Assembly: GCA_919902485.1 (NCBI GenBank)
Contig: CAKKRB010000023.1
Span: 1-48,312, forward strand
DNA length: 48,312 nt
Source: Omnitrophica bacterium GWA2_41_15
GTDB lineage: Bacteria > Omnitrophota > Gorgyraeia > Gorgyraeales > Gorgyraeaceae
Reading direction: 5' to 3'
Position numbers and translations under genes: made by a program. Shown one piece after another: positions 34,422-36,137 of the stretch; positions within the stretch are counted from its first letter, which is position 1, and each line of letters begins with the position of its first letter. Under the pieces are notes generated by a model. It did no database searches and was not told where the DNA came from. It saw nothing but the letters and a program-made list of their open reading frames with translations.

Positions 34422-36137
34422 TCAATAATGTGTAAATTTATTTGTTATAGGCATGCGCCTGTCTTTACCGAATGCCATTGGAGTAATCTTTACGCCTGGC
34501 GCTGCCTGGCGCCTCTTATATTCGCTGGAGTCTATCATTTTTAATACCTTTTTTACAACATCTTTATTGCCTATGCATTTAACAATATCGCTGAAACTTT
34601 TATTTTTTTCTATGTAGAGGTCTATAATTCTGTCTAAAAGGCCGTAAGGAGGCAATGTATCCTGATCCTTCTGATCAGGTCTTAATTCCGCGGTAGGCGC
34701 TCTCTTAAAAACACTTTCAGGTATAATTTCCTTTCCGTATTTTTTATTCCTATATCTTGCCAGTTCATAGACAAGTTTTTTAGGCGCATCTTTTATAACG
34801 CTGAATCCTCCTGTCATGTCTCCGTATAATGTGCAGTAGCCTGCGCTTGTTTCGCTTTTATTGCCTGTATTAAGAACCAGGAATCCAAATTTATTTGAAA
34901 ATGCCATAAGTATATTGCCTCGTATCCTGGCCTGAATATTCTCCTCTGTTATATCTGGCTCCAGACCTTTAAAATGCGGGCTCAAAGTATCAAGATAAGA
35001 GCTGAATATATTGCTTATAGGCACTTTTAGGAACTTTATATCGATATTTCCGGCTATTTTTTCAGCATCATCCTGCGTACCTTTTGAAGAATATCCAGAA
35101 GGCATGCTGACAGCAAGAACATTATCTTTTCCAAGCGCATCTTTTGCTATGCATGCCACAAGAGCGGAATCTATGCCTCCGCTCAAGCCCAACGCAGCTT
35201 TCTTAAAATTATTCTTATGCGCATAATCCCTGACGCCAAGCACAAGCGCGGAATATATTTCTTCATCCTTAGAAATTGTCTGAACCCTCATCTCCGTAGG
35301 GAACGGTTTCAAACCGTTCCCTACGTTCACAGATAGAGGCAGATCAAATAAAAACAAATCTTCATTAAACGCCTTTGCCTCCTTGATAATCTTTCCATCT
35401 TTCCAGAATAAAGCGCTCCTGCCGTCAAATACCAGCTCATCCTGGCCGCCGATAAGATTACAATAGACTATCGGAATATTAAATCTTTTCGCCTTACCGC
35501 CTATTACTCTTTCGCGCTCTTTAGTTTTATCAATATGATACGGCGAGGCAGATATGTTTACCAGGAAATCTGCTTTTTTTAAAACCCTCTCTGCCCTACC
35601 TGTCCCGAGCGACCCGTTCGACAAGCTCAGGGTCGTCCTGAGCCTGTCGAAGGACGAAGTCGAGGGATGCCCTATGCCCTCTGCCCATATGTCTTCACAT
35701 ATGTTTACACTGAAACGCAAATCCTTTATCTTTATTAACTTATTATCAGAGCCTGGCTTAAAATATCTTTTTTCATCAAACACCCCGTAATTGGGCAGGT
35801 GCATCTTATGATATACATATACTATTCTTTTATTGTTCAATACTGCGGCGCTATTATATATATTGCCTTTTTTCTCATCTACAAAACCTATTATTGCAAT
35901 AATACCCGGCACTTCTTTTGCTATTTCTTTAACGCATTTTATGTTTTCCTTTATGAAATACGGCTTTAAAACAAGGTCTTCAGGCGGATAACCTGTTATA
36001 GTAAGTTCTGGAAATACTATTAAATCCGCTTTCCGCCTGACTGCTTCCTCAATGCAGGATAATATCCTATCCTTATTCCCCTTAAGGTCTCCGACTGTAG
36101 TATTAATCTGGGCTATTACTGTCTTTACATTTCTCAT
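34422..36137 (-). CDS. nadE: glutamine-dependent NAD+ synthetase
   Basis: N-terminal CN-hydrolase domain (FPELTITGYP, NICEDIW) and a C-terminal synthetase with GLSGGIDSALV. It carries two palindromic inserts. Confidence 0.9.
   Translation of the reverse strand: MRNVKTVIAQINTTVGDLKGNKDRILSCIEEAVRRKADLIVFPELTITGYPPEDLVLKPYFIKENIKCVKEIAKEVPGIIAIIGFVDEKKGNIYNSAAVLNNKRIVYVYHKMHLPNYGVFDEKRYFKPGSDNKLIKIKDLRFSVNICEDIWAEGIGHPSTSSFDRLRTTLSLSNGSLGTGRAERVLKKADFLVNISASPYHIDKTKERERVIGGKAKRFNIPIVYCNLIGGQDELVFDGRSALFWKDGKIIKEAKAFNEDLFLFDLPLSVNVGNGLKPFPTEMRVQTISKDEEIYSALVLGVRDYAHKNNFKKAALGLSGGIDSALVACIAKDALGKDNVLAVSMPSGYSSKGTQDDAEKIAGNIDIKFLKVPISNIFSSYLDTLSPHFKGLEPDITEENIQARIRGNILMAFSNKFGFLVLNTGNKSETSAGYCTLYGDMTGGFSVIKDAPKKLVYELARYRNKKYGKEIIPESVFKRAPTAELRPDQKDQDTLPPYGLLDRIIDLYIEKNKSFSDIVKCIGNKDVVKKVLKMIDSSEYKRRQAAPGVKITPMAFGKDRRMPITNKFTHY
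35295..35325. repeat. GTAGGG-type palindrome inside nadE
   Basis: cGTAGGGAACGGTTT-C-AAACCGTTCCCTACg. The 29-nt core is identical to 36599..36627. It reads VGNGLKPFPT. Confidence 0.95.
35596..35668. repeat. ~73-nt GC-rich palindromic element inside the nadE CN-hydrolase domain
   Basis: The core hairpin is CGACAAGCTCAGG-gtcgt-CCTGAGCCTGTCG (35619..35649). The element is translated as ..IGHPSTSSFDRLRTTLSLSNGSLGTG.. Confidence 0.8.

Follow-up and report, generated by a model that had tools for sequence, protein, structure and literature searches.

A nested 69-nt hairpin element inserted in frame in the nadE gene of an Omnitrophota bacterium

The glutamine-dependent NAD+ synthetase gene (nadE) of Omnitrophica bacterium GWA2_41_15 carries a GC-rich segment of 69 nt that is missing in its relatives. 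The best overall explanation, with a probability of roughly 0.75, is a recent in-frame insertion of a non-autonomous mobile hairpin element composed of nested modules. That the insertion is selfish is, taken by itself, highly probable. The element would be mobile DNA holding three nested copies of a hairpin module, and it would have entered a tract of 7-nt period that codes for a variable loop of the NadE glutaminase domain. The window is the whole 48,312-nt stretch of DNA that was analyzed, and it is AT-rich. It belongs to a metagenome-assembled genome (G000; 40.7% GC) in 297 contigs, of which others are named C30, C274, and so on.

The insertion in nadE and the encoded protein

The gene and the insert are located as follows.

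34422-36137, minus strand: nadE, glutamine-dependent NAD+ synthetase, 571 aa (open reading frame and structure matches)
35599-35667, minus strand: inserted element, 69 nt or 23 codons, NadE residues 158-180 (DNA and protein alignments, identical copy on C30)

NadE has its best PDB match in 5kha (E = 3.5e-139) and also matches 4f4h and 3n05; Foldseek retrieves the same three structures. Both the CN-hydrolase domain (PF00795) and the NAD synthase domain (PF02540) are found. In an alignment with relatives, E44, K111, C147, and the SGGxDS motif (S319-S324) are invariant, and this Glu-Lys-Cys triad together with SGGxDS identifies the protein as a glutamine-dependent NAD+ synthetase. A genome-wide search of G000 found no second nadE.

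The sequence-only reading had described a GC-rich palindromic element of ~73 nt that adds ~24 residues. The GC-rich segment (64% GC vs. 39% in the remainder of nadE) and the insertion are real, but the true size is 69 nt, and the alignment gives 23 residues, as the I-G-H counted as extra is ancestral. The same reading counted ~42 residues between two conserved strings where ~18 were expected, and this agrees with the 42 found here and the 15-20 in relatives. All 19 relatives aligned, from the same genus, family, and class, show a clean 23-residue gap at the insert. A metagenomic NadE that is 90% identical outside gaps also lacks the 23 residues, which provides an empty site at the protein level. 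The segment is therefore not an ancestral loop, a possibility that had been left to an alignment.

At the DNA level, congeners have GCA directly joined to TAGGGC (or a close variant), where nadE has 69 nt in between. The element enters between the second and third bases of the His157 codon, with 1-nt ambiguity; the codon is split and then rebuilt, and the flanking codons are restored. Four of the six reading frames of the element are open. Alignment with the empty sites of congeners reveals no target-site duplication, so the insert lacks this mark of MITEs. A duplication formed by the GGGCA repeats around the insert was considered and rejected; these repeats belong to an older heptamer array and are present in empty sites as well. 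Sequence comparison thus confirms the segment as a lineage-specific and, by all appearances, recent insertion.

The insert lies within the glutaminase domain, 11 residues past the catalytic Cys147. An AlphaFold model of NadE, built on an 18-sequence alignment, has a mean pLDDT of 76.9 and a pTM of 0.78. The pLDDT falls below 50 over residues 155-178, against ~90 in the surrounding glutaminase domain. The length of the post-cysteine loop also varies among relatives (15-20 residues). From the model, we infer that the insert is a tolerated, disordered surface loop; its translation follows from its length of 23 codons and a landing frame without a stop. The enzyme most likely still works with the insert, and the best explanation is that nadE tolerates the insert rather than being improved by it.

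Other NadE proteins of the phylum carry additions as well. P0019 has 11 extra aa in the same post-cysteine loop, and P0007, P0009, and P0019 have unrelated inserts of 30-45 aa, rich in Gly, Ser, Pro, and Arg, in the inter-domain linker. The post-cysteine loop and the linker look like recurrent insertion sites. In G000, the NadE linker exceeds that of the 90%-identical NadE by 7 aa, and its pLDDT is below 50 over residues 270-283, where a palindrome of another family lies in frame.

35295-35325: GTAG-headed 31-nt palindrome in the nadE inter-domain linker, residues ~270-283 (repeat family D2/I7)

Nested hairpin modules

The unit of the element is a hairpin module in which a short GC-rich stem (3-5 bp, variable in sequence) closes a conserved loop core of 13-14 nt, TTCGAC-N2-3-GCTCA. 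The insert contains three such modules.

35603-35667, minus strand: outer module, sense TCCC-TCGAC ... GCTC-GGGA, with modules A and B inside its loop center (related copies in the phylum, split-module count)
35611-35634, plus strand: inner module A, short stem and 13-nt loop core TTCGACAAGCTCA at 35617-35629 (motif census, flank covariation)
35635-35655, minus strand: inner module B, inverted, stem GTCC/GGAC and loop core TTCGACAGGCTCA on the minus strand at 35639-35651 (motif census, flank covariation)

The palindrome from which the insert was first recognized arises because the two inner modules are inverted and their cores are complementary. Its arms (35619-35631 and 35637-35649) do pair with a single mismatch, A/C on the plus strand and G.U on the minus (sense) strand, as had been reported. 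However, the palindrome is not the unit of the element, and covariation backs short local stems rather than the long arms. The module core occurs 41 times in G000, with complementary flanks in 41/41. Among 31 distinct instances in G000, flank positions 1-3 are Watson-Crick paired in 77-100%, with exchanges among CG, GC, and TA, whereas partners slid by two columns pair in only 19-35%. Module instances from other phyla show flank pairing like that in G000. Nesting is not confined to nadE: G000 has 17 further split modules with an insert at the loop center, which is often a hairpin in its own right (slid controls, 0).

Folding energies favor a different structure. As DNA, the inverted inner pair prefers the long hairpin (-19.9 kcal/mol, z = -3.6), and as sense RNA it folds with -41.2 kcal/mol (z = -2.55). 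Although folding energy prefers the long hairpin, the covariation in these alignments supports local module stems as the probable structure. An Rfam search of the element returned only a chance miRNA match (E = 7). A likeness of the motif to tRNA, suggested by its T-loop-like start, was dropped, since the flanks form no T-arm.

The other palindromes of the window belong to different repeat families, which bears out the earlier statement that the element is unrelated to them. The 19-mer named in that reading has a single occurrence in the window, where shuffles predict 0. AT-rich palindromes of 40-52 nt make up a third family (13699-13750, 24990-25041, and 28945-28996). In the palindrome at 24999-25041, located between two ORFs of the minus strand, the mismatch is A/C on the plus strand and G.U on the minus strand, as had been described. 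In era (37126-38073, plus strand), a stretch of 56% GC (37790-37850) codes for a Pro/Ser-rich segment, and its 24-nt core is 92% complementary to 21734-21757. This stretch is possibly another in-frame repeat insertion.

A second copy, the target sites, and the distribution of the family

A second copy of the element, 100% identical over 69 nt, is present at C30:1089-1157, so the search for further copies in the genome that the earlier reading had proposed finds one in an unrelated gene. This copy lies in frame within a 559-aa ORF for a Mrp/Nuo-type membrane subunit. The same element strand is read as in nadE, in another phase, and a different peptide results. Thirteen relatives of the Mrp-like gene have an empty or different site at this position, and the net gain over congeners is 23 codons. 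The element shares with in-frame palindromic repeats of the Rickettsia kind more than one copy in the genome, an intact ORF with the frame kept, and absence from orthologs.

These results bear on the proposal that the insert is a selected functional addition, either a new NadE surface loop with an interaction or regulatory role or an mRNA hairpin that tunes translation or stability. The strong sense RNA fold given above, the G.U mismatch on the sense strand, and the reading of the same element strand in both copies fit this proposal. However, the same strand in two copies is a 1-in-2 event, and the same 69 nt in an unrelated membrane gene, read in another frame, yields no common peptide. Absence of the element from the 90%-identical NadE ortholog, low model confidence over the insert, and a mostly intergenic family also argue against it. 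The sequence-only reading had noted that the G.U pair leaves the mRNA hairpin intact, which is true as a description and adds nothing as evidence: the mismatch falls in the variable center of the module loop and was inherited jointly with the C30 copy, and any A/C mismatch reads as G.U on one of the two strands. Selection for a function of the insert is thus very unlikely.

The identical copies could also reflect an assembly error at a repeat common to both loci, or gene conversion between two loci with heptamer flanks. The genome is fragmented, and the flanks of the two copies resemble each other over ~12 nt to either side. However, the element is shorter than the read length and stands in unique sequence on two contigs with frames kept. 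The flank similarity already exists in the empty sites of relatives, which points to similar targets and not to a co-transferred flank, and related full-length copies occur in other Omnitrophota genomes. An artefact or non-transpositional origin is hardly credible. Both the nadE and C30 targets are purine-rich tandem arrays of period 7.

35667-35691: period-7 tandem array of 3.4 copies, the landing site of the element, which resumes beyond the insert (TRF)

Congeners have period-7 arrays of different unit sequence in the two orthologous loops. Such arrays, of 2.7-4.4 copies, are seen in the Mrp-like loops (L051, L052, L054, and L057) and in the nadE loops of G002, G004, and G005; the heptamer differs per species, and in G004 a GC-rich insert splits the array. 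Of 68 module instances in G000, 8 have a period-7 array no more than 60 nt away, compared with 2.4% of random positions.

Elements related to the 69-nt copy are found in 56 of 401 Omnitrophota genomes, including a full-length copy of 86% identity in another class of the phylum. The 21-mer of inner module B reaches much further and occurs in at least 119 stretches from many bacterial phyla, against an estimated ~0.5 chance matches. Its carriers include Alpha- and Gammaproteobacteria, Dehalococcoidia, Acidobacteriota, Bacteroidota, Actinomycetota, candidate phyla, and others. In other genomes, related elements are mostly intergenic. Several housekeeping ORFs of G000 contain module-bearing in-frame inserts; overall, long ORFs hold 39% of the module cores in G000 but 77% of random positions, a deficit that indicates selection against insertion into coding sequence. 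This is the distribution expected of selfish DNA filtered by selection.

Candidate movers and related systems

The strongest lead to a mobilizing enzyme comes from outside Omnitrophota, where the link between the module and a small GIY-YIG gene is strong. In Altererythrobacter fulvus, a 94-aa GIY-YIG ORF is bracketed by inverted modules, each ~30 nt away. When five genomes with the module (three Alphaproteobacteria, one Dehalococcoidia, and one Thiobacillus) were searched in full, a module stood on both sides of 10/10 close homologs of this protein (E <= 4e-34, 59-100% identity), eight of which had not been picked via the module, and of 0/12 weaker paralogs. A phmmer/HMM search of the 119 cross-phylum loci yields five GIY-YIG ORFs, two of them bracketed. 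The two GIY-YIG proteins tested match PF01541 with E values of 1.7e-14 and 6.6e-18, and among solved structures, the UPF0213 proteins 1zg2 and 1ywl come closest to the associated proteins. In a Dehalococcoidia genome (G423, L257), at least eight modules stand in tandem with 33-nt spacing directly downstream of a bracketed GIY-YIG gene.

Small GIY-YIG genes occur in 329 of 401 Omnitrophota genomes, often in multiple copies. The compact TTCGAC module was found within 300-400 nt of 0/30 and 0/19 Omnitrophota GIY-YIG genes. A variant hairpin (AYTCGC...GCTCRG) lies upstream of 5 of 29 such genes and in 0 of 98 control windows. G000 has a single small gene of this type.

C274:485-757: sole small GIY-YIG gene of G000, 90 aa, between tRNA-Tyr and tRNA-Gly (PF01541, E = 1.7e-14)

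Module-like hairpins (split modules) flank this gene on both sides, and its protein is 32% identical to the module-bracketed type. The 1-kb contig (C274:1-1016, L218) reads tRNA-Tyr, hairpins, the GIY-YIG gene, tRNA-Gly, split modules, and the next tRNA, and the 3' end of the GIY-YIG ORF overlaps tRNA-Gly.

A nuclease of this kind has a precedent in Ssn, small GIY-YIG single-strand DNA nucleases bracketed by NTS/SRM hairpin repeats (Chenal et al., 2025, Nat Commun 16:2388, PMC11893778). In Ssn, and for the TTCGAC module in the five genomes searched, dispersed GC-rich hairpins stand on the two sides of a ~90-aa single-domain GIY-YIG gene, an IS-like arrangement of repeat, gene, and repeat that occurs in many phyla. 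However, the NTS closes a loop of 3 nt with a long stem (PMC11893778), whereas the TTCGAC module has a short stem and a conserved loop of 13-14 nt. Neither the nadE element nor its copy on C30 matches the published SRM pattern, and the same holds for C274 and the Altererythrobacter flanks, while the NTS consensus, used as positive control, does match it. In-frame coding insertions are seen for the nadE element and are not described in PMC11893778, and the bracket architecture is not found among the Omnitrophota GIY-YIG genes examined (0/30, 0/19). By analogy with Ssn, a small GIY-YIG nuclease of this kind may recognize the modules as hairpins in single-stranded DNA, and a nick near or in the hairpin would lead to copy-in at single-stranded, slippage-prone sites. 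We hold this step only tentatively, at somewhat less than even odds.

The element could instead be a repeat of the REP/REPIN type moved by a RAYT, an IS200/IS605-like Y1 HUH transposase, through single-strand peel-and-paste. By the account of REP/REPINs and RAYT transposases in PMC11893778, which cites Nunvar (2010) and Ton-Hoang (2012), the two kinds of repeat share short hairpins with covarying stems and insertion without target duplication. Five Y1_Tnp matches are encoded in G000, hairpin-forming single-stranded DNA is the natural substrate of Y1 enzymes, and insertion into similar target sequences that leaves them unduplicated is compatible with Y1 transposition. However, none of the five Y1 genes of G000 has a TTCGAC module within 1.5 kb, and in other phyla the module brackets GIY-YIG genes and not Y1 genes. 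Unlike REP/REPINs as described there, the element lacks a GTAG head, lies inside genes and away from Y1 genes, and has its conserved part in the loop instead of the foot of the stem. The Y1 genes of G000 are flanked by the GTAG-headed palindromes, which form the REP/RAYT-like system of this genome, with the copy in the nadE linker as one member. These palindromes flank Y1 (RAYT-like) genes on C161, C278, and C248 and lie inside two of those genes; further 31-nt copies in the window are at 36598-36628, 9249-9279, and 25714-25744. Movement of the 69-nt element by a RAYT is therefore improbable.

In its behavior, the insert resembles the Rickettsia palindromic elements (RPEs; Ogata et al., 2000), which a MITE review (PMC10969869) summarizes as repeats of ~150 bp, confined to Rickettsia, with a conserved peptide per family. 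By that description, both are small repeated palindromes that lie in frame in unrelated housekeeping genes and are missing from orthologs. Translation adds a peptide segment to the host protein in both cases, one that the fold accommodates for RPEs and probably also in NadE, where the insert is predicted to be a surface loop. Compared with RPEs as described there, the nadE element differs in its length of 69 nt, nested modules, conserved loop, frames that differ between genes, and a module that extends across many phyla. The insert behaves like RPEs, and its likely mechanism is similar to that of Ssn/SRM or REP/RAYT systems, although it lacks a defining sequence feature of each of these two.

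The 10/10 bracketing of GIY-YIG genes in three other classes extends the Ssn-type idea of a nuclease and its hairpin to a second hairpin architecture. Searchable papers contained no description of this architecture, and the 13-mer core strings are absent from the searchable literature. Since the two copies are identical and their empty sites are clean, the insertion boundaries of this hairpin family can be placed exactly. In genome annotation, when a conserved enzyme from an AT-rich uncultured bacterium has an additional GC-rich segment, this is to be read as a repeat insertion and not as a novel domain; such insertions also give rise to phantom ORFs.

The insert in nadE is another case of selfish hairpin DNA tolerated in working genes, with no special feature of nadE. 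An essential single-copy enzyme appears to tolerate 23 foreign residues 11 positions past its catalytic cysteine. A broader proposal, which we regard as rather doubtful, is that the TTCGAC-N2-3-GCTCA hairpin is the recognition element of a pan-bacterial subfamily of small GIY-YIG single-strand nucleases distinct from NTS/SRM, and that the modules multiply into one another's loop centers and into period-7 tracts of coding loops, with the heptamer tracts as landing pad or scar. If this is true, the system would be a widespread source of variable loops in the essential proteins of bacteria with small genomes.
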